This document shows positions 9,805 through 42,077 of a stretch of DNA of 64,000 bases, piece by piece. A program made the translations under genes and the position numbers. Each line of letters starts with the position of its first letter. Position 1 is the stretch's first letter. Source of the stretch: an uncultured Clostridium sp. (GTDB lineage Bacteria > Bacillota > Clostridia > TANB77 > CAG-508); the NCBI GenBank assembly GCA_964371215.1, contig CAYJKU010000001.1, positions 63,335 to 127,334 of the forward strand, in the 5' to 3' direction. Below the pieces are notes generated by a model. It searched no databases. It worked only from the letters and a program-made list of their open reading frames with translations, and was not told the DNA's origin.

Positions 9805-9886
9805 TATGAGTAATATATATAATTAAAAAAATAAGATTAATATGAATAATAAGAAGAAAAGTAAAATTAATAATCTACTAAATAGT

Positions 9887-10216: not shown

Positions 10217-10217
10217 T

Positions 10218-10728: not shown

Positions 10729-10855
10729 AGTTGTCTACATAAAATATTTTAGTAAATGTTTTAAAATTGTAATAAATAAGGAAAAAGTTAAAAAACTACA
10801 TCGGTATTTCCTGTTTCCCTAAAAAAAGTCAAAAATACAGTTTATATAACAAAAA

Positions 10856-10880
10856 TAAACAGATATTGTGTATAAAATAA
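10856..10880 (+). promoter_or_regulatory. candidate extended -10 promoter (TGtgTATAAAAT) for gene 3
   Basis: attgtgtataaaataat lies about 70 nt upstream of the aaaagggg RBS and ATG 10946. No clear -35 element. Confidence 0.3.
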
Positions 10881-10945
10881 TATATATATATACTTAAATC
10901 AACAAAAGATGAGAATGCAAAAGCTAAGTAAAAAGGGGTATATCT

Positions 10946-13900
10946 ATGAATAAATTAAAAAACGGGAAAGATAACTTTAAAATTACAAGAAAAGGATTAG
11001 CAGTTATAATCTTAATAGCTTTAATAACAGTAATTGCTGCAATATTAGGTATAAGTAAAACATATCAAAATGTTTTAGTATCAAATAAGCAATTAAATAG
11101 CATAAAAGGAAACGATGTTAATAAAGGTGCAGCACAGCTATTAGTTAATAATATAAGTGTTAAAACTACTGATGCTAAAGTAGTTACAGCCGAAAATCAT
11201 ACAGTATTACTTAAAGAAGATGGTACTGTATGGTCTTGGGGTGCAAACGAATCAGGGCAATTAGGTATGGGGCAAACAGGAACAGGGTATAACTCTATTA
11301 ATCCTATACAAGTTGTAGGTATTAATGGAGAAGGTTTTTTAACAGATGTTGTAGATATAGCTGCAAATAGACAGTATACTATAGCTTTAAAATCAGATGG
11401 TACAGTTGTAACATGGGGATTAGGTACATCAGGGCAATTAGGAAATTTTACTAATGTATCTAGTCCTTTTCCAGTTGTAGTAATAGATCAAAATCAAGAA
11501 CCTTTAACTGGGATAACACAAATTGCAGCAGGATATAATTCTGGATATGTAGTAAAAAATGATGGTACAGCATATTCATGGGGAGCAGACTCATATGGTT
11601 CACTTGGAAGTTCAAAAACAAGTACTAGAAATTATGCTATGAATGTTGAAGTAACAAATTCAGAAGGTGAAATAGTAAATTTAACAAATGTTCAAGATAT
11701 AACAGGTGGACAATATCATGGAATAGCTCTATTAAATGATGGAACAGTATGGTCATGGGGATGGAATAGATATGGAAAACTAGGTGATGGGACAAAGACA
11801 AATGCAGATATTGCAATTCAAACAAATATTACAGATGTTAAAAAAATAGTATCAGGAGAATATTTTGTAATAGCATTAAAAAATGATGGTACAATATGGA
11901 CATGGGGAAGAAATAGTTATGGACAAGTAGGACATGGAGCTGTAAGTACTAGTTCAACAGGAGGAATAGTAACACCAGGTCAACCATTAAAAACAGATGG
12001 GACTGCACTAGTTGATGTAAAAGATATAGGTGTAATTAGTGAAACAACATATGCAATTACAAATTCAGGAGAAGTATATGCATGGGGATTAAATACATCA
12101 GGACAAGTTGCAGATAAAACAGTAGCAAATAAAACAAGAGCAGTAGTAATGCAAGATAGATTTGGTAATTTAGCAGGGAATGTTACATTACCAGACTCTC
12201 CAAATGGGGAAACAGCACATATGTTAGATGGAGAAAAATTAATTGCAACAGGAAAAAATAATGCAAATCAATTACAAATACCTACTAGTGTTGCAAGTAT
12301 TAATTATATGACGATACTAGATCAATCTGAACAAGAATTAGTATTAAATAATAATCAAGAATATATAAAAATAGGTGAATCAATTCAATTAACAGCAAAA
12401 TATAATGAAACTATGAATATATATAGTACTAATTTGTTGGCTGGTAATTTGGAATATATTAGTAGTAATTCAAATATAGCAACTGTAAATAATAGTGGAC
12501 AAGTAAGAGGAGTAGGAGCTGGAGAAGTTACAATAATTTGTACAGATAAAACAAATGGAAATGAAGCAAGAATTCAGCTAAATATAATAGATAATAAAGA
12601 TGGTGTAATAACAAACTCAATGGTTGTAAGTAATCAATATGCTACAATTATGTTAAAAGAAGATGGAACAGTATTGAGTATGGGGAAAAATACAAATAAT
12701 GTATTAGGAATAGGTGCAACAGTAGCATATCAAACATATTTGCCTATTCAAGTTATTCAAGAAAATGGAGAGAAATTAACAAATGTAGTAAAAATATCTG
12801 CAGGAATTCATCATACTTTAGCATTAAAAGCAGATGGAACAGTATGGTCATGGGGATATAATAATTATGGACAATTAGGACTTGGTAATTCAACAACATA
12901 TGGAGTAGCAAAACAAGTAGTAAATGTAGACAACACAGGATATTTAACAGATATAGTAGATATATCTACATCAACATATACATCAGTAGCACTTACTAAA
13001 GAAGGAATTGGGTATAGTTGGGGATATGGCTCAGGTTATGGATTAGGTCTTACATCAGCATCTAATAGGACTTTACCAAGTCAAATAATTTCTTCAAAAG
13101 AAATAGTACAAATTGAGCTAGGTGAAAGCAAAATACACCTTCTATTAAGTGATGGAAGAATAAAATCAATGGGTACTAATACTTATGGGCAGTTAGGGAC
13201 AGGATTAGGTACTAGTACATATACATATTTTGAATATGCAGTAAATGAAGATAATACAAAATATTTAACAGATGTAGCAAGAATTTCTTCAGGGAAAATC
13301 CATACTATAGCATTAATGGAAAACCAAACTGCATATGGATGGGGATATAACAACTATTATGAATTAGGAAATGAAACTAGAACAAACCAATTATTACCGA
13401 AACAATTAACAGGTATATCTAATGAAGGAATAATGGAAAATATAAGAGAAGTTTCAGCTGCACCAAATAGTACAATAGTACTTTTAAATAATGGAACTGT
13501 ATATGCAGCAGGACTAAATACAACAGGGCAATTAGGAATAGGAACAAATTCAAATTCTCAAATGTTTACTCCAGTTGTGGAATATAAAGTTGTAGAAGAA
13601 GAAACAATAGTATCTCAAATAACAGATATAGTTAAATTAGGAGATAATAAATATTTGTCTCAAGGATATATCAAAAATGATGGAACAGTAAATATGACAG
13701 GTGAAAATGTTTCATTACAATTAGGAGATAATACAGCTTTAAATAGAAACATAACAGTTAAATCAGGAGTTGGTGTTGAAAAAATATATACACAAAGTGA
13801 AACTATTAAAATAGATATAAATGGAAAATATCAAATAGTAACAAAATATAGTGAAGGATTGAATTTAAGACTTATAGATGAAATAGTTAAAAATCCTAAT

Positions 13901-16900
13901 GAATTAACATATATATCAAAAAATGAAAGTGTAGCAACAGTGAGTGCAGCAGGTGAAATTACAGGAAAATCTAATGGTCAAACAGGAATTGAAATAATAG
14001 ATGAAACTAATAATTTAGAAACAACAGTATATGTACAAATTGGAGAGGTTCAAGAACAAGATATATTAGAAATTCAAACATCAACAAGATTTACTGTTGC
14101 CTTAAAAAATGATGGAACAGTTTGGACATGGGGACTTGGAACATATGGTGAATTAGGAAATGGTAAATTTGAAAATAGTATTGAGCCAGTTCAAGTTATA
14201 TCGCCAACAGGTCAAGGCTTCTTAACAGATATAGTAGATATAGCAATTGGAGATACATTTGTACTTGCATTAAATAAAAATGGAAATGTATATTCTTGGG
14301 GGCGTAATACATCAGGAGAATTGACTGCAGGTCCAGAAAGAAGAAGTGTACCAGGATTGGTATTACAATATGATGGAACACCATTAAATGGAGTAAAAGA
14401 AATAACAGCTAGAATAAGTAGTGCAGCAGCTGTAAAAATAGATGGAACTGTATTTGCATGGGGAGTAAATACTAGTGGTCAATTAGGGCAAGGAAATTCG
14501 ACTAATATATCATATGCAACACAAGTAAAAGATACTCAAGGGACAGGTGTTATTCAAAATATTAAATCAGCATCTATGGGAACAAGTCATTTAGTAATGT
14601 TAACAAATGAAGGAACTGTGTTTGCAGTTGGTGTTGGCTCAGCAGGGCAGTTAGGAAATGGAGTTAAAGGTAATACAACACTACCAGTACAAATGAAAGT
14701 TGATGCAACAACAGTTGTAACAGATGTAGTACAAATAGCGACAGGGAATATTGTAAGTTATGTGCTTAAAAATGATGGAACAATATTAGCAACTGGAGAT
14801 AGTAATGATGGTAAAACTGGTCAAGGAAATGAAACAGATATTATATATTTAATGCCAGTATTAAAAGCTGCAGGAGAACCACTTACAAATGTATCTGAAA
14901 TTACAGACTCATATTTTACTCAAATAGCAATAACTAAAGATAATAAAGTATACAGTTTTGGTCGTAATAATTATGGACAAGCTATTTCAACAGTTATTGC
15001 AAATAGACTATATGCAACTGAAATAACTGGTTCATATGGTGTTACAGACTATCCTAAGATAATAGAAACAAGCTCAGATAAAACAGCAAATTATACATAT
15101 TTAGTAAAAGAAGATGGATCTGTATTAGGAATGGGATTACAAGATAACTATAAATCTCAAACATCAGGAACAGGTACTCAAACAATACTAAGAGAAATAA
15201 ACCCAAGTTATATGGAAATAACAAACAGAAGAAACTACTTAAAAGTTGGAGAAAATGTAACTTTAGAAACAAATGTAGTTGAAAATTTCAACATGTTTGG
15301 AGAAGCACCAATAGTTGGAAATTTAACATGGGAAAGTTCTAATGAAGAAGTAGCAGTAGTAAATTCAAATGGAGTAGTGACAGCTATTTCTGAAGGTGAT
15401 ACAACAATAACTGTTATAGATAGTAAATATGGATATGTTGCAAGTAGTATAATACATGTAACTAAAAATATAGAAGGAAATATAACTGTGCCACAAGTAG
15501 AACAAGGTACATATTTTACTATAGCATTAAAAGCAGATGGAACTGTGTGGGCAACAGGGTATAATAATTATGGACAATTAGGTGATGGTACAACAACATT
15601 ATCACCAGATATGAAACAAGTTAAGATAAATGAAACTGAATATTTAGCAAATATAGTTAGAATAGAAGTTGCAGAATATCATGTTTTAGCATTAGACAAA
15701 AATGGAGAAGTATGGGCATGGGGAAGAAATTCTCATGGGCAATTAGGTCAAAATACAACAACAAATTCTTCATACCCTATAAAAGTTAAAAATTCAGTAG
15801 GTGATGGAAATATAACAAATGTTATAGATATTGCAGTAACAAATGAAACAAGTATATTTTTAAAAGCTGATGGAACAGTTGAAATGGTAGGAGATAATGG
15901 ACATGGGAAATTATCAACAGGGAATACAACAGCATCAAGATTGCCAATAAAAGCAACAGGAATAGATAATGTGTTAGATGTTTCAGGAAATAATGATTCT
16001 GTAATATTCTTACAAGGAACAGGAAAAGTATGGGCTGTAGGAAATAATTCAAGTGCTGAATTAGGAGACAAAACAGTAACAATTAGTTATTTACCAAGAG
16101 AAGTATCAAATAGTACAGGTGATGGTCAATTATCTGGAATTGTTCAAATAGCAACAGGATTACATCATACAGCAGCTTTAGCTAAAGATGGATCTGTATA
16201 TATTTGGGGAAGAGGAACAAATGGTCAATTAGGAAATAACCAAACAGTTGCAACAAATACAATTCCAGTTAAAGTAATTGATGGGTCAAATACATCATCA
16301 GCTATTAAAAATGTAAGTTATGTAGGAACATCACAATATACAACTAGTGTTGTAACAAAAGATGGGAAAATGTATAGTACAGGTGAAAATTCATCAAATC
16401 AACTAGGTACAGGAACAGGTGTAGATTCATTAGTATTTATTGAAGCAAAAGACACAACAAATTCTAATATATCAGACATATTATTTGTTACAAATTCTAT
16501 AGGAAATATATCTAATAATGCTGTAATTAAAGAAGATGGAACAATTTGGACAACAGGAACAAATGAGTATGGTCAATTAGGAAATGGAACATTTGAGACA
16601 AATACAGTATATGGATTAGTTGGAAAATATCAAATAGATGCAGAAAATGAGCAAACAATAAAAGAAAAAGAAACATATCAAATTACAGCAAAAAGAATAC
16701 CACCTTTTAATGTATTTAATCTGCAAGATACTAGAGAAAATAATATGACATATACATCATTAAATACAGAAATAGCAACAGTAAGTGCAACAGGGTTAGT
16801 AACAGCAGTAAGTATGGGACAAGTTAGAATAGATATATATGATCAATTAACAGAAGTAATAGAAAGCATAAATATAAAAGTTGTAGCAGAAGAAGGAGAT

Positions 16901-34900: not shown

Positions 34901-37900
34901 GTTCCAGAAAATACAGAAATCCTAAACTTAGAAGCAAAAACAGTAGATTCTGCTGCAAGTGTAAGTATAGAAGGACAAGAAGCAAGTAAACAAATTCAAA
35001 CTAAAGAAATAGCTATGGAAGAATATACTGTAAGAACAATTCCAGTAAAAGCTATATCTGAATTTGGTAATGAAGTAGAATATATATTAACTATATATGA
35101 AGAAACTGCATTAACAGAATTAGAAAGCTTAACTGTAAATGGAAAACAGGCAATTAAAAATAATATTTCAGAATATAGTATAGTTGTATCAAAAGAAACT
35201 GAAAGTGTAGAAATAGTTGCTAAATCTGTATATGAATTAGCAGATGTTAATATAAATCACTTAGGTGAAGAAGTACAAATTTCTACAAGAACAATAGAAA
35301 TAAATTCAGATGAAACAGTAGTTAGAATTACAGTTTCAGCAAATGGAAAAGATAAAGAATATACACTTAAAATTGAAAAAGAAAAAGATGCAACAAGTTT
35401 ATCTTCTGTATATGTAAATGGAGCTATAGTTGCAAATGTAAATAATACATTTGAAGCAACAGTAAACTCATCTGCAATTAACGCAGAAATAACAGCAATT
35501 GCATCAGTTGAAACAAGTTTAGTCAAAATTGCTGAAAATGAATCTGAAATCAAAATGTCAACTAAAACTGTTGAAATATCAGGAAATGAAACAATATATG
35601 AAATAATAGTAACTGATGGAAGTAATAGCGAAAACTTTGAAGTATACACTTTAATACTTAAGAAACCATCTACAGATAATTCATTAAAAGAAGTATCAGT
35701 AAGTAATGGTCTAAGTGTTATAAAAGCTGAAAAATCATCAGAAGGAAATATATATAATGTAAAAGTAAATGATACAGATACAGTATTAGATGTAAAAGCA
35801 GTAGCAAATTATGCATTAGCAGAAGTTGCAATACAAAATGATATATATACTATTGGGACAAATGAAAGTGAAATCACTTTAAATGAGGATACTACAAGTA
35901 TATTAATTAAAGTTAAAGCACAAGATGGAACAATAGCAGAATATACACTAAATATTGAAAGATTATCTTCAAATACAAATATATTAAATATAACTGTAAA
36001 TAATAATGAAACAACATTAAGCAAGACAGAAGAAAATGTATATGAATATACATTAACTGAAAGTTTAGCAAATGTAGATGTAAAAGTTACAATGGAAGAT
36101 AATTTAACAGATGTAGCGATAAATAATAAATTATTTGAAAAAGCTACAATTACAAAAACAGTAGATATAACAGGTAGATCAGTTGATGTAGTAATTAACA
36201 CTAAAGCTGAAAATGGTGATGAAAAAACATATAAATTAATCATAAAAGGATTACCAGATACTACTAATTTATCTAAAATAACTGTAAATAATATTGAAGC
36301 TATATATGTAGATAGTGGAGATAAATATCAAGTTAAATTAAATAAAAATGTAACAGAATTTACAGTAACAGCTGTTGCTGAAGATATATTATCTAAAATA
36401 GGAATAAATGAATTTGAAAATGAGGTAGCAACAACTACAAAAGTTATTTCAAAAACAGGTAATATAACAACTGTTAAGATAATTGTTACAGCACAAAATG
36501 GTATCGCAACAGGAGAATATATTTTAGAAATACTAGAACAATCTAGTGAAACAGGAATTAAAACTTTATCAGTAGATAATAATCTTGTGGATATAGATGA
36601 AAATGGTAAATATAGTACAAGTGTTGTAAACAAAGATACTGTTCAAATAGGAATTGTTTTAGTAGATGAAAATGCTACAGTTAAAATTGGAGAAATTGAT
36701 GGATTAACATCTACTCAAGATATCCAAGATGGAACAACAACAATTCCAGTAATAGTAACTGCAGAAGATGGAACTACAAAATCATATGAAGTAGTTATAT
36801 ACAAAATGTCTAATAATACAAATGTAACATCAATAGTTGTAAATGGAGAGTTAGCAATACTTGACGAAAATAATAATTATGTTGCAAATGTAGGAAATGC
36901 TAGTGAAGCTCAAATAGTTGTAACAGCAGAAGATGTTAAAGCTAGTGTTGAAATAGATGGTAATTTACCTCAAATGTCAACAAGTACAGCTACAATAGAA
37001 ATATTAGAAGATCAAGAATTGGTAGTTACAAATTTAACTGCTGAAGATGGAACATCAGAAGCTAAACAATTAATTATTAATACATATTCTAAAGATACAT
37101 CAATACTTAGTTTAACAGCTGAAAATATAGATAGTGAAAAAATTAGTCAAACAGGTGAATCTACTTATGAAATTGAAGTAAGTAATTTAACTACAAACAT
37201 TAATTTAACAGCTATAACTACATTTAATAAAGCTAAAGTTAAAATAGAAGATGGTGTGTATTCAGAAAATACAGTTACACAAGATGTAAATATTTCTGGT
37301 AAAGAAGAAATTAATATAACTGTTCAAGCTGAAAATGGAGATGAAAAAACATATATAGTATCAATTGTTAGAGTATATGATTTATCTATTAAATCTTTAT
37401 CAGTAGATAATACTATTATAGAAGAAGTAGATGGACAATATACAGCATGGGTAAACAGTAGTGTGACATCATCAGCATTAAAAATAGATACATTAAGTCC
37501 AGAAGCAATAATTAAAATTGGTGAAGAAACATATACTAACACAGTTACATTAAATGTAAATGTACCAGATAATACAAATACTATAAAAGTAAGTATATTA
37601 TCTCCAGATGGAAAAAATGAAACTTCATATAATGTGTATATAAATAAAAAATCTGGAGATACAGATTTAGAATATGTACAAGTAGATTCAAGTTTTGGTA
37701 GTTATGAAGAAGATAAATATGTAGTAACAGTTCCAATAAAAGATGATACATATTTATTAAAAGCTAAACCTAATAATGAATATGCTAAAATCAAAATAGG
37801 AAATAGTGAATTCTCATTAGGAGAAGTATCTTCTGAAATAGACTTATCTGGTAAAACAGAAGAAACAGTTCAAATAACTGTTGAAGCACAAGATGGAACT

Positions 37901-40900
37901 ACAAAAGTATATGATTTACTTATTAAAAAAGTTTCTTCAGATAATACTTTAAAAGTTGTTAAAGTAAATAATGTTGAATTAACTGAAGAAAACGGAGTAT
38001 ATAGGACATATATTAAAAATAATGTAACATCAGCACCAATATATATTGAAACTAATCATTCAAATGCAAAAATTATTGTAAAAGAAACTGAATATACAAA
38101 TATTGCAACATTTACTGAAAATACAGAAACAGGATCAAATTTAGAAATAACAGTAATTGCTGAAAATGGAACAACAGTTAAATATAATTTAATTATTGAA
38201 CATGAATCAAATGATGCAAGTGAACAAAGTGTAATAGTAGATGGTCAAGAAGCTGTTAAAATTGGAGACAATACATATAGAGCAACAGTTAAAAAAGATC
38301 AAGAAACTGCAAACATTTATGTTAAAGCAGCAAATGAAAAAGCAACAGTTAAAATAAATAATAATCCTCAAATAGCAATATATGAAAATACTATTCCAGT
38401 ACAAATTACAGATAGTAAATCAATTATAGTGCCAGTAACAATTACTGCACAAGATGGAACAACAACTAATACATTTAACATTGAAATTGAGCAAATATCT
38501 AATAATGTAAATATTGAAACAATTACAGTTAATGGATCAAGTGTTACAAGTTATGATGAATCATCAAAAACATATAATATAACACTTACAGATAATTCAT
38601 TAGAAGAATCTACTGTATATATTAAAACTGAAGATGTATTATCTAAAGTTAAAATAGAACCAGGAGAGTTATCTACACATGAATTAACAAATGTTGTTGG
38701 TATACCAGATGATATTACTACTTTAATAATTACAGTAATAGCAGAAGATGGTTCAGAAGGTAAATATAATTTAATTATTAAAAAATTATCTAAAGATGCA
38801 GAAATATTAGAATTTTCATTAAATGGAAATATAATTGAGATAAGTGCAGATGGTAAATATTTAATAAATACTGTAGAAAGTGTAACATCAGGTAATATAA
38901 GAGTAGTACCAAGTAATGAATTTGCAAAAGTTACTATTGAAGGAGTTCAAAGTTCAAATGTAGGTATATTTGAAAGAACAATCAATTTACCAGATCAAAG
39001 AACTTATGAAACAAAAGTAGTGGTAACTGCAGAAGATGGAACAGTTAAAGAATATCCAGTTATTGTTACTAAGATTTCAGATGATGTAAATGTTGGTAAA
39101 TTAACAGTAAATGGAGTAACTGTAACAGATTATTATGAAGATACAAAAACATTTGAAGCATTTATAACTGCTGAAAGTACAACTGCAAGTATTGTAGTTA
39201 CACCAGGAAGTAGTTATGCTAAAGCGGGATATGCTGAATTAGAACCAGCTACAAGTATATCGTATTCAGTAAATACACCAGGGGATATTACTTCATCAGA
39301 ATTCTATATAATGGCAGAAGATGGAACAATTCAAAAATATACTATTAAAATGCAAAAAATGTCGACAGATGATTCTTTAAAAGAAGTATTTGTTGATGGT
39401 AAATTAGTATTACCAGATGAAACAGGAAATTACTATATAAATGTTGCAGAAGATTTAGAAAAATCACTTGTAAAAGTAGTTTCAATGAGTGAATATGCTA
39501 CAATTAGTATTAATTACGAAGTAGCAGAACAATCTCAAAGTATAAGAGAAACTATGTTACAAACAAAATCTACAACAGTAAATATAGTAGTAGCACCTCA
39601 ACAAGGGGCAAGTAAAACATATACATTAGTAATATATAAAGGTTCTACAAATAATAATTTAGCAAGTGTTAAAGTAGATGGAGAAAATGTAATAACATAT
39701 AATCCAGAAACTAGAACATATGAAGCATTTATTACAAATGGAGCTACAAGTTCAGCAATTGAAATATTAGCTGAAAACGAATATGCAACAATAACAGTTG
39801 GAGAAAATACTGCAAAAGGAAAATTAACATATAGTCAAGTAGTAGAAGATGCTGTAACAACAATTGGAATTGATGTAACATCAGAAGTTGGGGAAACTCA
39901 AAAATATACATTAAAATTAAAATATATTTCAATAGATAATACAATTAAATCAGTAATGGTTGATGATGTATTAATTGAAGAAGATAGATTTGATGGATAT
40001 GTAACATATGTAGTAGATACAAATGAAATTGCTAATATTAAAATAGAAGCGAATAATCAATATGCAACAATTAATATTAATGATTTAATAGAATCAGAAC
40101 AATTAGCAGAATTAGAAGTTACTTTATCAGAAGATAAAGAATTAAATGTACCATTTACAATAATTGCTCAAGATGGAACTGAAAGTGTACATACATTAAA
40201 AATAGTAAAAATATCAGATAATAATTCAATCCAAAGTGTTAAAGTAAACAATGAAGAAATAACATCTTATGATGAAGAAACTAAAACATATACAGCATAC
40301 ATAAATGAAGATATAGTAGAAGCTGAATTAGCAATAGTTGCAGCAAATAGTATGGCGAGTATAGAAATAGGAGTAAACAGCAATGTTGGAAATATAACAG
40401 AAGTTATAGAAATAACAGAAGATATGACAACTATAAATGTAAAAGTAACAGCAGAAACATCAAGAGAAGAAAATTATGTGGTAAATATAATTAGAAAATC
40501 AGGAAATGCAAATATTAGTTTAGTAGAGGTAAATGATATAGGTATAAATTCACCATATACTACTACTATCAAAAAATTAGATGAAACAGCTAAAATAAAA
40601 ATCGTAACAGAAAACGAAAATGCAAGTATTAAAGTAGGAGAAAATGAACCAGTAATAGGAACATTTGAATTAGTTGTAGACTTAGAATTAAGTCAAGAAC
40701 AAATAGTAATTCCAGTAGTAATAACTTCACAAGATGGAGTAAATGTAACAAACCATAATATAACATTAAATAGATTAAATAATGAAACAAGTATTAAGAT
40801 ATTAAATGTAGATGGAACTGAGATTACAGGAATAGATGGAGAATATGAAGCATTAGTAGTAGGAAAAGATACAGCTGAAATATATATTGAATTAACAGAT

Positions 40901-42001
40901 AGTAATGCAAAAGTAAAAGTAGATAGTGGAGAATTCAGTACAGGAACATTAACAGCTACAGTTGATACAAAAACAACAACAATAAGAACAATAACAGTGG
41001 AATCAGCAGATGGAACTGTAAAAGAATATGTATTAACATTAACTAAAAAAATAGCAATTGAAGGTAAAGTAATAACTCAAGGAATAACAAATCATATTGC
41101 GACTGTAACAGCATATAGAACAGATGATACAAGAGTAATAGGAGATGAAGAAAATCCAAGAGAAGAAATGGCTAAAGTGGAAACAAGAGAAGATGGAACA
41201 TATCAATTAATATTAGAACCAGGAATGTATGATATAGTAATAACAAAACCAGGATATTTAAGTCATACAGTAACACATATTAGTTTAGAAGAAGGTTCAA
41301 ATGCAGTCATAGAAGATAAGTCAATTTATGGTGGTGACGTTATAGAGACAGGTGAAATAGAAATAGATGACTTAGTAAATATGAATAAAATGTATGGAAG
41401 ACCAATAACAGATGTAAATAGAAAATATGATTTAAATGATGATGGAAAAATAGATATTTTAGATAGAAATATGTTAAGAGCAAATTATACTAAAAAATCT
41501 ATAGTTGAAAAATGGGTAAATCCTAATCCAGTAATTCCAGAAACAATAAATGAAGTTCAAAAAGAACAAGTTAAATTCATAATTCCATTAGAAGGAAACT
41601 ATGAAGTAACAAGTGAATATGGACAAAGAATCCACCCAGTAACAGGTGAAGAATCTAAACATACAGGTATAGATATAGCAGGAGCTCATAGAGCAAATAT
41701 ATTATCTATAGCAGATGGTGAAGTAGTATTTGCAGGAGAAGCTGGAGGATTTGGAAATGCAATAGAAATAAGACATGAAGTAGATGGAGAAGTGGTATAT
41801 AGTTTCTATTCACATTTATCACAAATAGATGTAGAAGTAGGAGATAAAGTAACACAAGGACAAGTTATAGGATTAGAAGGTGGAGATCCAGAATTAGACC
41901 AAAATGTTGGATTAAGTACAGGACATCATTTACATTTTGAAATAAGAGTAAAACAAGGATATGGAAATGATGTAGACCCTAGACAATATATTAATTTCTA
42001 A
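10946..42001 (+). CDS. giant (10,351-aa) multidomain surface protein: signal-anchor, RCC1 beta-propeller/Big_2 array, 23 cadherin-like domains, prealbumin-like domain, dockerin-like module, C-terminal M23 metallopeptidase
   Basis: A single uninterrupted 31,056-bp ORF with a good RBS. The N-terminus is MNKLKNGKDNFKITRKGLAVIILIALITVIAAILGI (basic n-region plus a 20-aa hydrophobic helix). There are well over 100 RCC1 blades of the form DGTVWxWGxNxYGQLGxG. Big_2 domains recur as Y(T/K)SL..(E)IATVSETGLVTAV..G...I and W.SSN.E.ATVD..G.VTA.S.G. A cadherin-like array spans 34545-41040. The M23 domain has HTGIDIA (HxxxD) and HHLHFEIRV (HxH) motifs. Confidence 0.9.
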   Translation: MNKLKNGKDNFKITRKGLAVIILIALITVIAAILGISKTYQNVLVSNKQLNSIKGNDVNKGAAQLLVNNISVKTTDAKVVTAENHTVLLKEDGTVWSWGANESGQLGMGQTGTGYNSINPIQVVGINGEGFLTDVVDIAANRQYTIALKSDGTVVTWGLGTSGQLGNFTNVSSPFPVVVIDQNQEPLTGITQIAAGYNSGYVVKNDGTAYSWGADSYGSLGSSKTSTRNYAMNVEVTNSEGEIVNLTNVQDITGGQYHGIALLNDGTVWSWGWNRYGKLGDGTKTNADIAIQTNITDVKKIVSGEYFVIALKNDGTIWTWGRNSYGQVGHGAVSTSSTGGIVTPGQPLKTDGTALVDVKDIGVISETTYAITNSGEVYAWGLNTSGQVADKTVANKTRAVVMQDRFGNLAGNVTLPDSPNGETAHMLDGEKLIATGKNNANQLQIPTSVASINYMTILDQSEQELVLNNNQEYIKIGESIQLTAKYNETMNIYSTNLLAGNLEYISSNSNIATVNNSGQVRGVGAGEVTIICTDKTNGNEARIQLNIIDNKDGVITNSMVVSNQYATIMLKEDGTVLSMGKNTNNVLGIGATVAYQTYLPIQVIQENGEKLTNVVKISAGIHHTLALKADGTVWSWGYNNYGQLGLGNSTTYGVAKQVVNVDNTGYLTDIVDISTSTYTSVALTKEGIGYSWGYGSGYGLGLTSASNRTLPSQIISSKEIVQIELGESKIHLLLSDGRIKSMGTNTYGQLGTGLGTSTYTYFEYAVNEDNTKYLTDVARISSGKIHTIALMENQTAYGWGYNNYYELGNETRTNQLLPKQLTGISNEGIMENIREVSAAPNSTIVLLNNGTVYAAGLNTTGQLGIGTNSNSQMFTPVVEYKVVEEETIVSQITDIVKLGDNKYLSQGYIKNDGTVNMTGENVSLQLGDNTALNRNITVKSGVGVEKIYTQSETIKIDINGKYQIVTKYSEGLNLRLIDEIVKNPNELTYISKNESVATVSAAGEITGKSNGQTGIEIIDETNNLETTVYVQIGEVQEQDILEIQTSTRFTVALKNDGTVWTWGLGTYGELGNGKFENSIEPVQVISPTGQGFLTDIVDIAIGDTFVLALNKNGNVYSWGRNTSGELTAGPERRSVPGLVLQYDGTPLNGVKEITARISSAAAVKIDGTVFAWGVNTSGQLGQGNSTNISYATQVKDTQGTGVIQNIKSASMGTSHLVMLTNEGTVFAVGVGSAGQLGNGVKGNTTLPVQMKVDATTVVTDVVQIATGNIVSYVLKNDGTILATGDSNDGKTGQGNETDIIYLMPVLKAAGEPLTNVSEITDSYFTQIAITKDNKVYSFGRNNYGQAISTVIANRLYATEITGSYGVTDYPKIIETSSDKTANYTYLVKEDGSVLGMGLQDNYKSQTSGTGTQTILREINPSYMEITNRRNYLKVGENVTLETNVVENFNMFGEAPIVGNLTWESSNEEVAVVNSNGVVTAISEGDTTITVIDSKYGYVASSIIHVTKNIEGNITVPQVEQGTYFTIALKADGTVWATGYNNYGQLGDGTTTLSPDMKQVKINETEYLANIVRIEVAEYHVLALDKNGEVWAWGRNSHGQLGQNTTTNSSYPIKVKNSVGDGNITNVIDIAVTNETSIFLKADGTVEMVGDNGHGKLSTGNTTASRLPIKATGIDNVLDVSGNNDSVIFLQGTGKVWAVGNNSSAELGDKTVTISYLPREVSNSTGDGQLSGIVQIATGLHHTAALAKDGSVYIWGRGTNGQLGNNQTVATNTIPVKVIDGSNTSSAIKNVSYVGTSQYTTSVVTKDGKMYSTGENSSNQLGTGTGVDSLVFIEAKDTTNSNISDILFVTNSIGNISNNAVIKEDGTIWTTGTNEYGQLGNGTFETNTVYGLVGKYQIDAENEQTIKEKETYQITAKRIPPFNVFNLQDTRENNMTYTSLNTEIATVSATGLVTAVSMGQVRIDIYDQLTEVIESINIKVVAEEGDIATPQVLSTTNAVLNLKTDGTVTSWGNSTNGILGNGTTSGIQATETNVLEVGGVGNLSNVVQIEAAVETGYALKADGTVVGWGQNNYGQLANHTTSISTTPVYILDVSKNKLTDIVKISATYQGGLALKSDGTVWAWGYNNYSQLGIGSTSQVYYAIQVKDSTGKAFLTDIKDISSGHGSNYAIKNNGTVFAWGRNSYGELGTGNTTASALPVETLKGLDVKKIAANMRSLYVLTEKGELWSVGYNGQGQLGNGTTSTSSVLVRVLDESGKALTNIVDIGGQEYTGFAKDANGVIYSWGENTSGQAGQNSLVNVTRATPIKGKYGELLTNKIKFLPNGYNGNMPAIFLIGYDGLIYSAGTTANYVALEGRSYNKTGFEEITPDYMQINERTVYLKETQTQILTTSVVSKVNGFGKVIEPGKLTWSSSNGAIATVDQNGKVTAISEGRVNIKVVDTNGYTASSNIIVTKNSENVVTIPQIGVGLNFTVILKADGTVWTSGTNTYGQLGSGNTLERNVVGQVKISENKNLENIVKISVGDSHVMALTTNGEVYVWGYNSVGQLGQNTTTNSIYAVKMLNETGTDEISNIIDISATDDTSVLLNSAGKILSVGSNSYGEFGTGNTTASRLPVMMTDKENIIQISSTERSLSYLTGEREVWSIGYNSYGQFGDKTTTAGYYPVQAMDDDSVGVLSNITKISTGIHHVVALSEDGYAYTWGYGLQGQLGNNTMVNSSVPTKILTIDGTKAIQDIIDIGTSERTTSVLSTSEGLLTTGQNSYYEIGNGNNTNTKLLVKPQVVQGANLDNILTLSNSNQSAYNNSVIKKDGSVYIVGANTYGQIGNETYTLSSNYTEVGNIGLATKSAHTMKVDSTYQIQVERTDSLNVYNDVIQRNNKLIYSTSDEEIATISETGLVTGKATGLATINIFEESTEVTTQVMIRVVETEGEIAIPQIVSSSTATFSLKADGTVTSWGTNSSGVLGNGTTAGIQYEEKNVLGVGGEGILSDVVQISAAYDSVYALKADGTVVSWGNDTYGKLGDKVSGNSSTPVYVVDSKGERLTNVIKIDNTYYGAMALKADGTVWAWGYNGQSQLGQGNSTNYDYAVQVKDTTGRGYLIGIKDIAAGYRTGYAIDNTDTIWAWGYNSYGEHGVGATGATTLPRQSNVDLDIKKMVVGTSQVYILTEQGSIYAWGRNSEGQLGIGTIAHSYVPVQVLGVDGKPLTNMVDIGAQEYTAFAKDADGVIYSWGENTSGQAGQNSLVNVTRATPIKGQYGETFTEEIKYLPSGYIGNMNTQYLIGEDGTVYASGYGASRGMLQTTSYNWLGFKAVLPDYLQINERVSYIKEGETKELTTSVVGRLNAYGKPISIGNLVWKSSNEEIATVDQKGVVTAKTSGEVTIIAVDSSNGNIASATINVTKNTKGTVAIPMTAMGQGYTAILKADGTVWTVGDNTYGQLGDGTNITKTQPVQVKINSTEFLTNVVRIEVGFTHTLALTKNGEVYAFGQNQFGQLGQGNTTSLNYATRVKDITGTNYLENIVDIAIAGGSASYVSSYALTTDGFVYGWGNNSYSQLGDKTTTNRYLPVKVQDAYNVKDIAGSYAAIHMLNQDTTVSGVGYSAHGQLGSNVTFSNHTADIQDVINPTRNGVFRGIVKIEGGTHHVMYLTEDEKAYAAGYNAYGQLGTGNTTNYIYPIQLKSDMKIVDISASYHSSIIKTEQVVDGEKVYKVWNAGYNLGGQFGIGNTTNSSIFVELKDSSNQNVNLDIDMIGASKPSTSGNSSYIDINGYVWTVGANSYGQLGNDTFNTSYNVIRIGSLILIPNEYTYTMNPSNTKQISLTLTDTFNVYNKETTLGSIEYKSLDTDIATVSETGLVTAVTKGSTRIQITDKTNDVKTVIFVDVLPENEEIKYTSMVDGGTSHSVALKSDGTVWAWGLNSKGQLGNNTTITTENPTQVVGVNIEKFLTDIKQIAVGSNHTLALKADGTVYSWGDNTYGQLGDNSNSIKYAPVQVLGENGQGVLSNIKYIEAGESVSIAVDEEGKVYAWGQNQYGQLGDGTNIARSVPVKTKAALTGIIQVDTYNRHTVAVKADGTVWAWGYNSHGELGDGTTTARNIPVQMKLTATTYIENAIEVATQRYSTNILLDNGTVLSVGYNAQGQLGDGTTTQRLLPVTVRGVGNNGVLSNIVSISGGYYSAYALSKNGQVYSWGYNNLGQLGNNTQTVSSLPVNVVNSSIEGNLENIISIGSGTYHVLAIEDTGFVQTWGSNASKQLGDSTLPHASIPVYISSKIEMIPSDAKLVINETVQLGIKMNSFNLFEDINEEGREVIYKSLNEEIATVSETGVVTAKSFGVTRILATDVVSGRVATAEISVLENNKQVSPKIDNGSNHFISLKADGTVWTWGDNTYGQLGNGSNIDSQVPTEIKIEDVIDVAAGFNHSIVLKKDGTVWTWGYNGYGQLGQGNTTTSYTPVQVKGVNGQGYLTNVKAVFGNGYTTFALLNTGEVVGMGRNTYAELGDRTTSNRYTPVYVLDQYGVSPMKDIIDVIPSTTSVAAIRADGTVWAWGYNHYGQLGINTLINSKITLPMQVRDVTGTNTLQNIIQVTSHYSGFTALKADGTVYSWGYGTQGRLGIGSNSSSYMPIQVKSPDGTGFLTDIVRLDGKFSSIAISADGKVYSWGSNSYGQLGVKTNSYRNLPTQVFAENGTDYLTDIMFATSGNSTAFVDYEGNVYTTGYNINGELGNDTTINRNIVTNVSEVIISNNENPIKLGKSGETHQLEAVAKKRFNLLKETVDNVNLKYTSLDESIATVSETGLVTAVGTGYTFIKISDETLGTSTSVKVEVLGDGITLPKVIGGENFYIALKADGTIYTWGRNSQGQLGQGHTTNVLEPTKVEGLEGIIDIAAGRYSAYVVKSDGTVWGTGYNNYGQLGINNTTRKNTFTQVLAENGIDYLSGIIGISANNYHVAALKQDGSVVAWGYNGYGQLANNSTTTKYIPTKMHGVNNVIQVEAGLHSMYMLSGDGSIYAVGYNSYGNLGNGTTSGTITPIKVLNPEGTAEMENVREISAGSYHLGVITYDNKLYQTGYNSQGQLGDGTTSHKNKLVLVQENVKTVSSYMNITNIIKEDGTVWSTGRNAYGNAGNNTTANNTRFVQMLGENGIGIFENALFVTNSEESTLVADKSGKVYTTGYNGYGELGDSTTVTKRVLSGISLEKVTVKESIVTINSISGTKEIESSMNLGFNILYNELKNATFTYKSSNEKVATVTANDTKTKGIITAVDYGTTTIEVQNVETGGTAIVIVRVLREGDVANPKVVAGSDFSVALKSDGTVWTWGSNNYGQLGLGDTTYRTEPTKVENLEGIIDIAAGRSHVIALKSDGTIYTWGLNNYGQIGDNTNVNKNTPTKIVGLDNLIDITGGYYHTSVLKSDGTVYSWGYNGHGQLGDGTTGTKNSPTTVKGISNVKDISAGHYTTLAVTIDGNTWAWGYNGYGFLSTPAGTNVLPKLVGLDNIASVEVGINSYAAISNVGELYTWGLDSNQVLGNGNLGTTYVPTLVRDIDGEKLTGITNVDIGSYTTLATTSEGKVYGWGNNNYSQLGTGNTAVQSLPILLQNSMGEFTNVIEIASGYDHTIVVRNDGSVWTTGYNGAGRLGDKTTFNKNMYGSISDMNISLEENKIVLAKEGDTYELKPTISVGFNLLYDEIPETSYTYESANIDIATVSQTGVITAVSRGKTRIKLTEEKTNKITYLEVSVLQEGDITFPKVETSNYTTIALKSDGTVWGWGYNDYGQLGLGNNQTVISPTKLPIDNVIDISVGYRHSLFLKSDGTVWAVGNNSYGQLGNATKTSSYEILQVRDIDGGEYLSNIKSIDIGRYHSMALDKSGNVYTWGYNGQGQLGNGTYTLSTIPVKVSGISNIITIEAGYRSGYGLSNDGTVYSWGYNIYGQLGDGSSTTRTSPTRAFITNVIEISVSQSDNVLALKDDGTVWGWGRNTYNALTDVGGSAPKQLKGLDGNRMSGIKDIESSYYSGFAVTETGETIAWGYNTYGQLGIGNNSSTSVPVIVKESETENFANTLSISGGVNYTSFAKEDGTVWTVGDSAYNKLGNGEKVDLNIPKNIAIPYISVDNDELAIVENTSMNLNAKFDTGFNLFEDTKIDVELAYEIKDTNIATIDNTGNVTAKSVGKTYVYITYQNYVRRVEINVIAKEGESVIDVSAGARHTLSLKSNGTLWVFGNNVYGQLGTGLVDNTNILEPEQIDTGDIRFSQVATGRYHSMALDKAGNVYTWGYNAQGQLGNGTSATSGKLTKIETLSNIKEIYADEYKSMAIDINGNIYVWGSGFGATPIKYPYYTEVIDISESYVLLQDGTVWSISLTPVKVETLSNIVEIAEGTSHYLALSADGTIYAWGSNSYGQLGQGNTSSITVPTVVKNSDNTGNLTDIVQIETSRYSSYAITGDGNIYSWGRNIYNSLGVTTASDRITLPISVTTEEAIEITSGDYFGAYVDNAGFVHTWGYNGYGQLGHGDTTIHEIPSLIGEIGIENSLKNITLNINQTQELDIKLRNKFNLRIDEISSGEFNLDILNNDIISIENNNIVPKKVGTTVIIVNENVTGLTDTINVEVIENVTTPRIESGEDFTIAVKADGTIWSFGLNDKSQLGIGNSENQNEPVQIIMPDSSRIKDIEVGTSHTLILTENGKVYGFGYNGNGQLGLGHTYNSNKPTAFLDESGRTFTNIIDVSAVGNKSYVLTIDGDVYVTGEGYNKLATEILTDEKIISIYGNYGITIDKKAINLDTLEIISNVENVEKISVSDTHVILLTQNNVAYALGDNEYGQLGNGTKLDSNTAIQIKDSVGTGVLSNISEIKAGTNYSVAILENGDTYVWGSNENGKLSRISETDLVLPRKENIKENIFMIETGTNHTVIATEEGRVYAFGKGTEGQLGNLANENSIEPVQVGKESIVVDEYNITLNEKETLYLNARLRNFNILAKDVEGNFTYKANDTKTVTVDNTGKLTAISSGTSSVVVTEGEKQLIVQITVIPENTDVKSSVETTDSHTAILKADGTVWTYGQNNYGQLGIGNTSNVDDLTQVIFSENVKIISIKTGENHTIALDENGNVWTWGRNTSYQLGVTGGTRTRPIKLDLGVKIEKIEAGYNQSFAITENRELISWGDNSNGELGVNKYTYTTLPTKAYEIEDVLDVQAGRSHTLILKTNGDVYGTGHNGFGTLAIEEYRINSFRKIEELSNIEYIYAGEYQSAALAMDNNMYVWGYNIYGNFGLGNKDTIKVPTILEGINNIEEISLGKTYSSIITEDGKMYMSGSNVQGQFGNDTDESTEIFVEVTNINEVIDISVGNTYSAAIKADGTVWAWGDYYHGITDTRTITNSLVPIQVGIDKFALKENEITVNVSRNKQIEVIPNEDFNVYVTKEETINEYNYISLNPEVVTVNEQGVLTGIKVGTTWVKVQDRVTGEEQVAIIRVIGNTNTVAPQIAAGNNFVNILKADGTIWSAGYNSQGQLGNGTYTPSNTLNQINNVKTYTQILAGNDFVIALKNDGTVYAWGENSLGQLGQGNRVNMTAPTQIPGLQDIVKISAGDNHVVALNKYGEVYSWGSNSNYQLGLGNNKNQDIPQKMVLPQIKVIDVETGENGTVIIDSLGDMYTVGLSNEQYNTITKIENVSNVVKAEISGNSIIALLENGNVINIADSVTDIYTAGNATDISAVADENMIQTNSGEVYTFGLNASGELGNNSTNEITVPTKIERENTIIGIGSGEHNTYIIEDTGRVYAAGNNDYGQIGNNTNEGNMEYVLVDSNKVELSPENEVIVENETLTFEMISNRFNVLKEDSRIITDFTWSVTDETILENIEDGTVKGLIPGKADVVLTEKETGAVINSVVIVEEADKARIERITVGNTLAKITDSMTYEVTIAESNSEELKITTKDKSDKISIDNGTTWFENGILTLNKEILSNPEVVEILVESEFGIQYEFTLNIISKSNNVDLEYIKVNDITATAINGNNYQVIVPENTEILNLEAKTVDSAASVSIEGQEASKQIQTKEIAMEEYTVRTIPVKAISEFGNEVEYILTIYEETALTELESLTVNGKQAIKNNISEYSIVVSKETESVEIVAKSVYELADVNINHLGEEVQISTRTIEINSDETVVRITVSANGKDKEYTLKIEKEKDATSLSSVYVNGAIVANVNNTFEATVNSSAINAEITAIASVETSLVKIAENESEIKMSTKTVEISGNETIYEIIVTDGSNSENFEVYTLILKKPSTDNSLKEVSVSNGLSVIKAEKSSEGNIYNVKVNDTDTVLDVKAVANYALAEVAIQNDIYTIGTNESEITLNEDTTSILIKVKAQDGTIAEYTLNIERLSSNTNILNITVNNNETTLSKTEENVYEYTLTESLANVDVKVTMEDNLTDVAINNKLFEKATITKTVDITGRSVDVVINTKAENGDEKTYKLIIKGLPDTTNLSKITVNNIEAIYVDSGDKYQVKLNKNVTEFTVTAVAEDILSKIGINEFENEVATTTKVISKTGNITTVKIIVTAQNGIATGEYILEILEQSSETGIKTLSVDNNLVDIDENGKYSTSVVNKDTVQIGIVLVDENATVKIGEIDGLTSTQDIQDGTTTIPVIVTAEDGTTKSYEVVIYKMSNNTNVTSIVVNGELAILDENNNYVANVGNASEAQIVVTAEDVKASVEIDGNLPQMSTSTATIEILEDQELVVTNLTAEDGTSEAKQLIINTYSKDTSILSLTAENIDSEKISQTGESTYEIEVSNLTTNINLTAITTFNKAKVKIEDGVYSENTVTQDVNISGKEEINITVQAENGDEKTYIVSIVRVYDLSIKSLSVDNTIIEEVDGQYTAWVNSSVTSSALKIDTLSPEAIIKIGEETYTNTVTLNVNVPDNTNTIKVSILSPDGKNETSYNVYINKKSGDTDLEYVQVDSSFGSYEEDKYVVTVPIKDDTYLLKAKPNNEYAKIKIGNSEFSLGEVSSEIDLSGKTEETVQITVEAQDGTTKVYDLLIKKVSSDNTLKVVKVNNVELTEENGVYRTYIKNNVTSAPIYIETNHSNAKIIVKETEYTNIATFTENTETGSNLEITVIAENGTTVKYNLIIEHESNDASEQSVIVDGQEAVKIGDNTYRATVKKDQETANIYVKAANEKATVKINNNPQIAIYENTIPVQITDSKSIIVPVTITAQDGTTTNTFNIEIEQISNNVNIETITVNGSSVTSYDESSKTYNITLTDNSLEESTVYIKTEDVLSKVKIEPGELSTHELTNVVGIPDDITTLIITVIAEDGSEGKYNLIIKKLSKDAEILEFSLNGNIIEISADGKYLINTVESVTSGNIRVVPSNEFAKVTIEGVQSSNVGIFERTINLPDQRTYETKVVVTAEDGTVKEYPVIVTKISDDVNVGKLTVNGVTVTDYYEDTKTFEAFITAESTTASIVVTPGSSYAKAGYAELEPATSISYSVNTPGDITSSEFYIMAEDGTIQKYTIKMQKMSTDDSLKEVFVDGKLVLPDETGNYYINVAEDLEKSLVKVVSMSEYATISINYEVAEQSQSIRETMLQTKSTTVNIVVAPQQGASKTYTLVIYKGSTNNNLASVKVDGENVITYNPETRTYEAFITNGATSSAIEILAENEYATITVGENTAKGKLTYSQVVEDAVTTIGIDVTSEVGETQKYTLKLKYISIDNTIKSVMVDDVLIEEDRFDGYVTYVVDTNEIANIKIEANNQYATININDLIESEQLAELEVTLSEDKELNVPFTIIAQDGTESVHTLKIVKISDNNSIQSVKVNNEEITSYDEETKTYTAYINEDIVEAELAIVAANSMASIEIGVNSNVGNITEVIEITEDMTTINVKVTAETSREENYVVNIIRKSGNANISLVEVNDIGINSPYTTTIKKLDETAKIKIVTENENASIKVGENEPVIGTFELVVDLELSQEQIVIPVVITSQDGVNVTNHNITLNRLNNETSIKILNVDGTEITGIDGEYEALVVGKDTAEIYIELTDSNAKVKVDSGEFSTGTLTATVDTKTTTIRTITVESADGTVKEYVLTLTKKIAIEGKVITQGITNHIATVTAYRTDDTRVIGDEENPREEMAKVETREDGTYQLILEPGMYDIVITKPGYLSHTVTHISLEEGSNAVIEDKSIYGGDVIETGEIEIDDLVNMNKMYGRPITDVNRKYDLNDDGKIDILDRNMLRANYTKKSIVEKWVNPNPVIPETINEVQKEQVKFIIPLEGNYEVTSEYGQRIHPVTGEESKHTGIDIAGAHRANILSIADGEVVFAGEAGGFGNAIEIRHEVDGEVVYSFYSHLSQIDVEVGDKVTQGQVIGLEGGDPELDQNVGLSTGHHLHFEIRVKQGYGNDVDPRQYINF
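12550..23950 (+). repeat. four tandem super-repeats of about 2.83-2.85 kb within gene 3; each is a double RCC1 propeller plus two Big_2 domains
   Basis: Unit starts are recognisable at about 12.57, 15.47, 18.30 and 21.13 kb (VTKN...GT.IP...G..FT.ILKADGTVW...). There are near-identical DNA tracts, for example 17716-17877 versus 20546-20710 (FAKDANGVIYSWGENTSGQAGQNSLVNVTRATPIKGKYGE), offset 2830 bp. Confidence 0.75.
23950..34540 (+). repeat. eight tandem units of about 1.3-1.4 kb within gene 3; each is a single RCC1 propeller plus a Big_2 domain
   Basis: Unit starts with the motif (V/I)xVLxEGD(I/V)..PKV..G..F..ALKADGTVWTWG are at about 23.99, 25.39, 26.77, 28.12, 29.46, 30.71, 31.96 and 33.29 kb. 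Confidence 0.75.
34545..41040 (+). repeat. array of 23 cadherin-like beta-sandwich domains within gene 3; period about 282 bp (94 aa)
   Basis: The recurrent unit is ...L..L.VNG..(I/V).....Y...V......V.I.A.......V.I..........I.V.AEDG...(E/K)Y.L.I.K. I counted 23 domain ends of the type Y.L.I.K between 34.8 and 41.04 kb. Confidence 0.75.
41055..41290 (+). other. CarboxypepD_reg/prealbumin-like domain at the giant-protein C-terminus
   Basis: IEGKVITQGITNHIATVTAYRTDD...REDGTYQLILEPGMYDIVITKPGYLSHTV. Gene 1 shows the same architecture (GTYDIIIDKPGYLDYIITNV). Confidence 0.55.
41326..41495 (+). other. dockerin-like module of the giant protein
   Basis: GGDVIETGEIEIDDLVNMNKMYG...DLNDDGKIDILDRNMLRANY. 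The second loop is a canonical DxNxDGxIDxxD; the first loop is degenerate. Confidence 0.55.
41600..41960 (+). other. M23 family (lysostaphin/LytM-type) metallopeptidase domain, C-terminal in the giant protein
   Basis: YGQRIHPVTGEESKHTGIDIAGA...GGFGNAIEIRHE...YSHLSQIDVEVGDKVTQGQVIG...GHHLHFEIRV. Both zinc-ligand motifs, HxxxD and HxH, are present. Confidence 0.8.
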
Positions 42002-42031
42002 GCATACAATGTAAACAAAATATTAATAAAT

Positions 42032-42077
42032 AAACCGTATATAGAAGTAGAAATACTTCTGTATATGGTTTATTTTA
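42032..42077 (+). terminator. strong rho-independent terminator of the giant gene
   Basis: 18-bp stem aaaccgtatatagaagta-gaaa-tacttctgtatatggttt with two G-U pairs and a GAAA tetraloop, followed by aTTTT. Confidence 0.7.

Follow-up and report, generated by a model that had tools for sequence, protein, structure and literature searches.

A diverged tandem-domain stalk in a giant RCC1-rich surface protein of a gut Clostridium, with repeats that are probably old and stable

Does a giant gene built from tandem repeats gain and lose units readily, or have its repeats drifted so far apart that its length changes only rarely? The question is raised by a gene in a stretch of 64,000 nucleotides from an uncultured Clostridium sp. 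(GenBank assembly GCA_964371215.1, contig CAYJKU010000001.1, positions 63,335 to 127,334; hereafter the window). The gene, at 10946-42001 on the plus strand, is a single uninterrupted open reading frame (ORF) of 31 kb, without an internal stop, that encodes a repetitive protein of 10,351 amino acids (aa). The original prediction for this DNA described nested tiers of repeats with near-identical DNA tracts, and pointed to homologous recombination between them, a possibly variable fibre length and the risk of short-read assembly collapse. Our analysis leads to a different answer: the repeats are probably relics of tandem duplications that took place one after another long ago, and now form a stable and diverged stalk of a giant cell-surface protein.

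Repeat plan and divergence of the copies

Pfam families along the giant ORF are RCC1/RCC1-like and Big_2 in the first three quarters, followed by Cadherin-like beta-sandwich, CarboxypepD_reg-like and, at the C-terminus, Peptidase_M23 (Table 1). We mapped the units with repeat hidden Markov models (HMMs) built from the gene's own sequence. Seventeen Big_2 domains, ending at aa 534, 1019, 1492, 1966, 2439, 2910, 3383, 3865, 4335, 4804, 5265, 5711, 6162, 6577, 6994, 7432 and 7848, delimit 17 modules (M1-M17) of 415-534 aa, in each of which a propeller comes first and Big_2 closes the unit. These modules occupy aa 1-7848 (76% of the protein), and the rest consists of cadherin-like, CarboxypepD_reg-like, dockerin-like and M23 segments.

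When the 17 modules were aligned, seven blade motifs (LKxDGTVWxWGxNxYGQLG) were seen ahead of the Big_2 signature, and the Pfam WD40_RLD and RCC1 scores far exceed their cut-offs in the propeller region. An AlphaFold model of M5, with the 17 modules as alignment input, gave a 7-bladed RCC1-like propeller followed by an Ig-like domain (predicted local distance difference test 90.2, predicted template modelling score 0.85). Its best PDB matches are UVR8 (top matches, target-normalised TM-score 0.83-0.88), then HERC2 RLD and RCC1 (0.66-0.82), with E down to 1e-29. With seven RCC1 blades closing in the model, the modules are predicted to be true propellers.

The copies of these units are strongly diverged. 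Module pairs generally share 28-40% protein and 49-57% DNA identity, and the closest pair, M5/M7, reaches 57% and 69%, respectively. The corresponding figures are 44% and 62% for M4/M6, 41% and 56% for M4/M8, 40% and 56% for M6/M8, 41% and 57% for M11/M12, and 38% and 59% for M10/M14; mutual aa identity among M10-M17 is 28-41%. Neighbouring modules are 31-41% identical, and within M4-M8 adjacent modules share 31-34% as against 40-57% for next-but-one modules. The cadherin-like repeats are 20-39% identical pairwise, with an average of 26% and a maximum of 34% between neighbours.

At the DNA level, blastn aligned 15317-18602 with 18158-21437 at 67% identity, Tandem Repeats Finder found no array within the giant gene, and the longest exact repeat in it is 37 bp. 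A scan of the whole gene for pairs of at least 85% identity over at least 120 bp returned one pair only, 17680-17918 versus 20512-20750 (239 bp, 85%). At the same identity there are three pairs over 90 bp and 55 over 60 bp; nearly all of the 60-bp pairs fall on one motif, LKADGTVWxWGxNxYGQLG, and the cadherin-like region has no such pair. Exact matches of 24-37 bp fall on this blade signature because its residues are conserved and its codons AT-biased.

The claim of near-identical DNA tracts is therefore true of one tract, shared by M5 and M7, and not of the rest of the gene, where DNA identity between copies is typically 50-57%. Of the two examples put forward for it, 17716-17877 versus 20546-20710 is indeed 90.3% identical over 165 aligned columns, while the triplet 15470-15600, 18290-18420 and 21120-21250 is only 55-66% identical, with a core of about 60 bp at 82-83% over the blade signature.

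The periodicity of the protein, measured by ungapped BLOSUM autocorrelation against shuffles, peaks in M2-M9 at 944 aa, or 2,832 nt (z 17.6), and at 1,891 aa (z 10.4). The blade period appears as a peak at offsets of 50-56 aa in the propeller region (z 9-11), and the cadherin-like array peaks at 95 aa, or 285 nt (z 6.3). M1-M10 alternate between two module types, hence the double-module period of 2,832 bp: identity averages 37.7% between modules of the same parity and 33.7% between those that differ in parity (permutation p = 0.0034), and in odd modules the seventh blade drops out of detection. Such an alternation was looked for in M10-M17 and none was seen. Higher-order signals within the cadherin-like array (34601-41035) are weak: even offsets outscore odd ones, and z reaches 5.2 at an offset of eight repeats (760 aa; permutation p = 0.02).

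In its plan and counts, the original prediction was right: its four units of 2.85 kb are M2-M9, its eight units of 1.35 kb are M10-M17 and its 23 units of 0.28 kb are the cadherin-like domains. Its starting point, 12550, matches the M1/M2 boundary (12547/12548), and the cadherin-like array ends at nt 41035. The word 'nested' is inexact, since the tiers that lie within one another are blade, module and double module; the cadherin-like units are another kind of domain and form an array of their own, in series with the modules.

Table 1. Coordinates of the giant gene, its parts and the block that contains it (nucleotide positions in the window)
Feature	Position	Strand	Basis and remarks
Block of about 42.4 kb: three surface-protein genes (1733-3304, 3301-9804, 10946-42001) and two small genes	1303-43760		Comparison with L017
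Giant ORF	10946-42001	+	ATG start, GGGG ribosome-binding site upstream, TAA stop
N-terminal hydrophobic segment, aa 18-38, GLAVIILIALITVIAAILGIS	10997-11059	+	Sequence read; preceded by a basic stretch
Modules M1-M9, each a 7-bladed RCC1-like propeller plus Big_2	10946-23950	+	Repeat HMMs, module alignment; ends at 12547, 14002, 15421, 16843, 18262, 19675, 21094, 22540, 23950
Youngest duplication, double module M4M5 (15422-18262) versus M6M7 (18263-21094)	15422-21094	+	Pairwise identity
M5/M7 tract, copy A, in M5 blades 5-6	17680-17918	+	239 bp at 85%, 162-bp core at 90%; holds exact matches of 37 bp and 32 bp
M5/M7 tract, copy B, in M7	20512-20750	+	Offset 2,832 bp (944 codons, in frame)
Modules M10-M17, each a propeller plus Big_2, 415-469 aa (1.25-1.41 kb)	23951-34489	+	Repeat HMMs; ends at 25357, 26740, 28078, 29431, 30676, 31927, 33241, 34489
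23 cadherin-like beta-sandwich domains, aa 7886-10030, period about 95 aa (285 bp)	34601-41035	+	Pfam, repeat HMMs, autocorrelation
CarboxypepD_reg-like domain, aa 10052-10121	41099-41308	+	Pfam 32.8 bits versus cut-off 32.3
Dockerin-like EF-hand loop pair, aa about 10130-10178, e.g. YDLNDDGKIDILDRNMLRANY	41333-41479	+	Below Pfam threshold; strongly conserved in homologues
Peptidase_M23, aa 10238-10341, intact HxxxD (HTGID), YSHL and HxH (HLH)	41657-41968	+	Pfam, motifs
Terminator-like hairpin, 20 pairs, then T-rich tail	42028-42075	+	Sequence; 27 nt past the stop codon

Age of the duplications and the M5/M7 tract

The most similar units are the propeller modules M4-M8, and the most diverged are M14-M17 and the cadherin-like repeats. 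Identities between copies thus bear out the relative ages given in the original prediction, with a propeller double module as the youngest unit and the 3′ modules and cadherin-like repeats as the oldest. Even in M4/M6, the same codon is used at 128 of 203 conserved residues, compared to 130.5 expected from codon bias, and synonymous sites are therefore near saturation. A second indication of age comes from the homologous gene of a relative (L001; related loci are labelled L here), whose last 3,285 aa are collinear with aa 6593-9772 of the window protein at 34% identity. This alignment scores 1,556 bits, against 505 bits for the best off-register alignment. The units thus have positional counterparts in the two genes, and the duplications predate their split.

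These data are consistent with the following series of events. An RCC1 blade of about 50-56 aa would have given rise to a 7-bladed propeller, which, joined to Big_2, would have formed a module of about 450 aa that was multiplied to 17. The 5′ modules, M1-M10, would have been multiplied as pairs, the latest event being M4M5/M6M7, and a separate cadherin-like domain would have been multiplied to 23. Afterwards, the copies would have diverged to 20-57% protein identity, with copy number shifting rarely and over deep time. Because the copies are so diverged, RecA-type unequal crossing-over is expected to be negligible and changes in copy number rare.

The tract shared by M5 and M7 stands apart from this pattern. 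Its aa identity is 78% over 79 codons (88-90% in core windows), compared to 53% in the rest of the pair. One explanation is that purifying selection on a functional surface, such as a ligand-binding blade pair, has kept the two copies alike without any recombination between them. The high aa identity fits this idea, and strong codon bias alone gives shared codons at 67% of conserved residues. However, the same codon is used at 51 of 61 conserved degenerate residues in the tract (84%), where 40.7 are expected (binomial p = 0.003), and at only 143 of 200 in the rest of M5/M7 (71.5%; 130 expected; Fisher p = 0.04 for tract versus rest). Nor is the segment kept to that degree in any other module pair. 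We therefore consider selection alone a rather unlikely explanation, and the tract is most likely a short gene-conversion patch. It is also the sole site at which unequal crossover seems plausible; a crossover here would add or remove exactly 944 codons (2,832 bp).

Repeat number in relatives, recombination and assembly

As a direct test of stability, we compared the 3′ 10-11 kb of related genes, a part that contains three modules, the cadherin-like array and the M23 domain. Two relatives that are 94% identical in DNA over 11,015 bp (L026 and L027) have only two gap openings between them and equal repeat number, and a pair at 75% DNA identity over 10.5 kb (L002 and L023) has no unit-sized indels. 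Counts do vary across the family as a whole. Cadherin-like domains number about 19 in L022, 20 in L026 and L027, about 22 in L024, 23 in the window, about 23 in L023 and about 24 in L001; module numbers are about 6 in L008 (7,188 aa), 17 in the window (10,351 aa) and about 21-22 in L001. The last figure is estimated from length (at least 12,033 aa), L001 being a metagenome scaffold on which the giant gene is called at 12,033 aa. Among the relatives compared, repeat number thus appears to differ only between distant lineages, over deep divergence.

These results bear on the possibility of a variable-length stalk of the Periscope type, in which repeats of high identity recombine often and fibre length varies among strains or subpopulations. 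Some of our data point this way: the M5/M7 tract is in frame, at 85% over 239 bp (core 90%), with exact blocks of 37 bp and 32 bp at an offset of 2,832 bp; distant relatives do differ in repeat number; and a gene-conversion-like patch implies that copies interacted at least once. In Periscope stalks, however, neighbouring domains are 82-100% identical and their counts change between similar strains (PMC8201768), whereas neighbours in the window protein are 31-41% identical among modules and on average 26% (maximum 34%) among cadherin-like repeats, and no change in repeat number accompanies 6% or 25% DNA divergence in the part compared. The abundant recombination substrates of the original prediction reduce to inter-copy DNA at typically 50-57% identity, a single 239-bp tract at 85% and exact matches of at most 37 bp, and the length variation that it thought possible did not appear in the 3′ 10-11 kb of relatives at either 94% or 75% DNA identity. 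Frequent length change of this kind is, in our view, very unlikely.

A different concern is that the counts of 17 and 23 are false because the repeat region was collapsed, expanded or wrongly joined during assembly. Metagenome assemblies often fragment repetitive giant genes, and several relatives do show a gap of Ns (L001), an in-frame stop (L002) or frameshifts (L005-L007). Against this, exact repeats in the window gene do not exceed 37 bp and a single tract is at least 85% identical over at least 120 bp, so that every copy should be resolvable by the usual k-mers or reads. Moreover, the 31-kb ORF is uninterrupted, its 3′ 9.5 kb are collinear unit for unit with an independent assembly, and an RF-1 100% identical to that of the window, presumably from the source genome, is located on a contig of 291,516 bp. 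The short-read collapse that had been feared thus finds no support in a gene with an intact ORF, no exact repeat above 37 bp and a 3′ third collinear with independent assemblies, and we regard an artefact as extremely improbable.

We therefore favour old serial duplications that now form a stable, diverged stalk. It should be noted that several points weigh against this interpretation. The comparison of relatives covers the 3′ part of the gene; the 5′ two-thirds, including M4-M7, lie outside it, and copy number may have changed there recently. The evidence for stability comes from relatives of the source species, and rare homeologous or illegitimate events could still take place at the 55 tracts that are at least 85% identical over 60 bp. 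Gene conversion leaves only a modest signal at synonymous sites, part of which strong selection on the blade pair could explain. Lastly, the anchor, the length of the stalk, the function of the dockerin-like segment and the peptidase activity are predictions from sequence. With these points in mind, we see no reason to distrust the assembly of the 31-kb ORF, and fast length switching is not to be expected. The concrete exception is the M5/M7 tract, where 2,832 bp could be lost or duplicated in frame.

The C-terminal end, the accessory block and comparison with known systems

The stalk ends in an M23 domain that scores 85.4 bits in Pfam (cut-off 28.7) and matches solved M23 enzymes at E = 1e-16; 17 homologous C-termini all share the residues H209, D213, H260, H298 and H300. 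Pfam score and zinc-ligand motifs together assign it to Peptidase M23 (LytM/lysostaphin type), and we infer that it is a catalytically competent peptidoglycan endopeptidase. The preceding EF-hand loop pair is called only dockerin-like, as Dockerin_1 scores 13.8 bits in the window protein (cut-off 22.9, E = 0.07). Its D-x-N-x-D-G loop residues are nevertheless conserved in homologues, some of which have a precomputed PF00404 match. At the other end of the protein, the hydrophobic segment at aa 18-38 is probably a membrane anchor or an uncleaved signal.

Fusion of the stalk to M23 is the norm in this family: a single open frame runs from stalk into M23 in six genes (L008, L022, L023, L024, L026 and L027). 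M23 proteins of about 500 aa among the database homologues, which might have been taken for a separate neighbouring gene, were rejected as such, the cases examined being downstream pieces of interrupted giant genes. The interruptions are a 10-N scaffold gap near 9830 in L001, a single in-frame TGA at 9682-9684, inside a cadherin-like repeat, in L002, and frameshifts at about 3043-3071 and 10001-10044 that are shared by L005-L007 across three assemblies; one of these frameshifts is due to a single nucleotide inserted within an RCC1 motif. The frameshifts were checked base by base in L006 and L007, and L005 has identical gene calls. These interrupted genes could be pseudogenes or the result of sequencing errors. 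Recoding of the TGA in L002 was considered and found to be unsupported, since L023 has a sense codon at this position and the window gene has no in-frame TGA.

A scan of genome contigs with the last 5,000 aa recovered one real relative, L008 (27% identity), the other eight loci being generic RCC1 or M23 matches. An exact 35-mer from the conserved tract had no match in metagenome contigs. When the N-terminal 534 aa were searched against proteins, all matches were generic RCC1 proteins of less than 1,000 aa, which yielded no length distribution of giant homologues. Several loci vary the plan. On an animal-gut contig (L004), the M23 end of a giant gene (42-1571) is followed by a CAP-domain gene (1812-2357) and a second giant RCC1/Big_2 gene (3152-11571; 5,879 aa called), and some genomes therefore carry tandem paralogous giant genes. 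L021 (3349-8391; locus GC 0.38) has 14 cadherin-like repeats and the M23 end without a propeller, in an open frame of 1,680 aa; L028 (1-3720) passes from RCC1/Big_2 modules straight into M23 without a cadherin-like array; and in L033 (2304-10247) the M23 end closes an open frame of 2,647 aa in which few repeats can be recognised. The loci document a modular family in gut Clostridia, with a conserved CarboxypepD_reg/dockerin-like/M23 end on stalks of 1,680, 7,188, 10,351 and at least 12,033 aa.

As to function, the N-terminal hydrophobic segment would hold the protein in the membrane, with the dockerin-like segment and M23 projected at the far end of the stalk. By our estimate from typical domain sizes, a stalk of 17 propeller-Ig modules followed by 23 cadherin-like domains would measure roughly 0.2 micrometres. 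One can imagine a gut Clostridium using such a tethered stalk, with an active M23 and dockerin-like tip, to cut the walls of its neighbours on contact, in antagonism or predation, the propellers and cadherin-like domains binding the targets and the gene belonging to an accessory island next to prfA. We offer this as a speculation that is unlikely in its full form. If it were true, the link between giant proteins and cell-wall degradation that has been proposed for Omnitrophota would extend to Gram-positive gut bacteria, and the family would merit experimental work should its M23 tip serve as a weapon outside the cell or as an anchor in the wall.

The giant gene lies in a block flanked by genes for RF-1, a ZIP transporter, an M18 aminopeptidase, a YkuD protein, RuvA, an MgsA-type ATPase and a polysaccharide deacetylase, in what looks like ordinary bacterial chromosome; GC in the window is about 0.22-0.32. 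The closest RF-1 homologues are 100%, 95%, 95% and 89% identical. In L017, where RF-1 is 95% identical, window positions 1303-43760 are replaced by 123 bp between the RF-1 and Beta_propel genes, and gene calls in L018 have the same order and spacing. In L019, prfA is followed directly by zip, and in L020 a metallophosphoesterase gene lies between the two. The cluster is thus absent from the prfA-zip locus in three relatives with 89-95% identical RF-1, aligned at base level in L017 only, which makes the block an accessory one. What varies between relatives at this locus, as far as we could document it, is whether the cluster is present at all; this, and not repeat number, is the ecologically relevant variation. 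No integrase, transposase or tRNA gene was seen within 1303-43760.

Within the block, the first gene (1733-3304) encodes 523 aa with Cadherin-like and Dockerin_1 domains and overlaps the next by 4 bp; the product of the second (3301-9804), of 2,167 aa, has 15 or more Big_3 repeats. An unusually long AT-rich non-coding gap of 1.1 kb (9805-10945) separates the Big_3 gene from the giant gene. In this gap, 10199-10215 and 10706-10720 could each fold into a terminator-like hairpin, and a repeat of 23 bp occupies 10099-10161. Two ORFs follow the giant gene on the same strand (42681-43133, 150 aa; 43139-43678, 179 aa), each with one hydrophobic segment and neither with a significant Pfam family. Further downstream, the window's only strong tandem array, a 42-bp repeat in 6.4 copies with 88% matches (54998-55270), lies in the minus-strand YkuD-domain gene (54989-56194). 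A 499-aa database protein (P0015) has both M23 and PCRF (RF-1) Pfam matches, which suggests that the M23 end of a giant gene adjoins prfA in another relative; genes of this kind may thus have settled near prfA more than once.

How does this protein compare with systems already described? The M23 enzymes known so far are small proteins, either secreted or in the membrane, or else belong to phage tail proteins. The window domain resembles LytM/lysostaphin-type endopeptidases in its HxxxD and HxH motifs and conserved central His, but differs from the known enzymes in terminating a stalk of 10,000 aa. A full-text literature search for this domain combination found no paper, which is weak evidence of absence.

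The Periscope Proteins (SasG, Rib and the SHIRT arrays of Sgo_0707) have stalk domains of 82-100% identity whose number varies between similar strains (Whelan et al. 2021, PMC8201768). As in these, a stalk of tandem folded domains appears to project a terminal functional domain, so that repeat number would set the projection distance, and there seems to be an anchor at one end (the aa 18-38 segment) and a functional domain at the other (the C-terminal M23). The polarity is different: here a hydrophobic anchor is N-terminal and the enzyme C-terminal, whereas Periscope Proteins bind their ligand at the N-terminus and are anchored in the wall at the C-terminus. The copies also lack the high mutual identity that defines Periscope stalks, sharing only 20-57% protein and 49-69% DNA identity; Tandem Repeats Finder detects no array, and repeat number is equal in the relatives at 6% and 25% DNA divergence (3′ 10-11 kb).

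A closer likeness is found in the RCC1-type giants of gut Oscillospiraceae, which exceed 30,000 aa, have a single repeating domain along their length and lack membrane anchors (West-Roberts et al. 2023, bioRxiv 10.1101/2023.11.21.568195). The same study describes other Clostridia gut proteins of 10,000-30,000 aa and dockerin-type elements in large Clostridia proteins. The window protein is likewise very large, extracellular and rich in RCC1 propellers, and belongs to gut Clostridia of low GC; its relatives are labelled uncultured Clostridia and come from Hadza and other human gut and animal gut metagenomes. It differs in its size (10,351 aa), in its N-terminal hydrophobic anchor and in that RCC1 repeats do not run along its entire length (76%); a Big_2 spacer follows every propeller, and a 23-unit cadherin-like array and a C-terminal M23 complete the protein.

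In sequence design, the stalk recalls arrays of the titin type. Borgia et al. (2015, PMC4660218) argue, from misfolding, that neighbouring domains in long tandem-domain proteins are usually dissimilar. Divergence between neighbouring homologous domains is what we see in M4-M8. Compared to titin as treated there, the window protein is bacterial and extracellular, with propeller plus Ig modules in place of single Ig domains. Our verdict is that the protein is a diverged, titin-like tandem-domain stalk, newly described among the giant RCC1-rich surface proteins of gut Clostridia, and not a stalk of the Periscope type.

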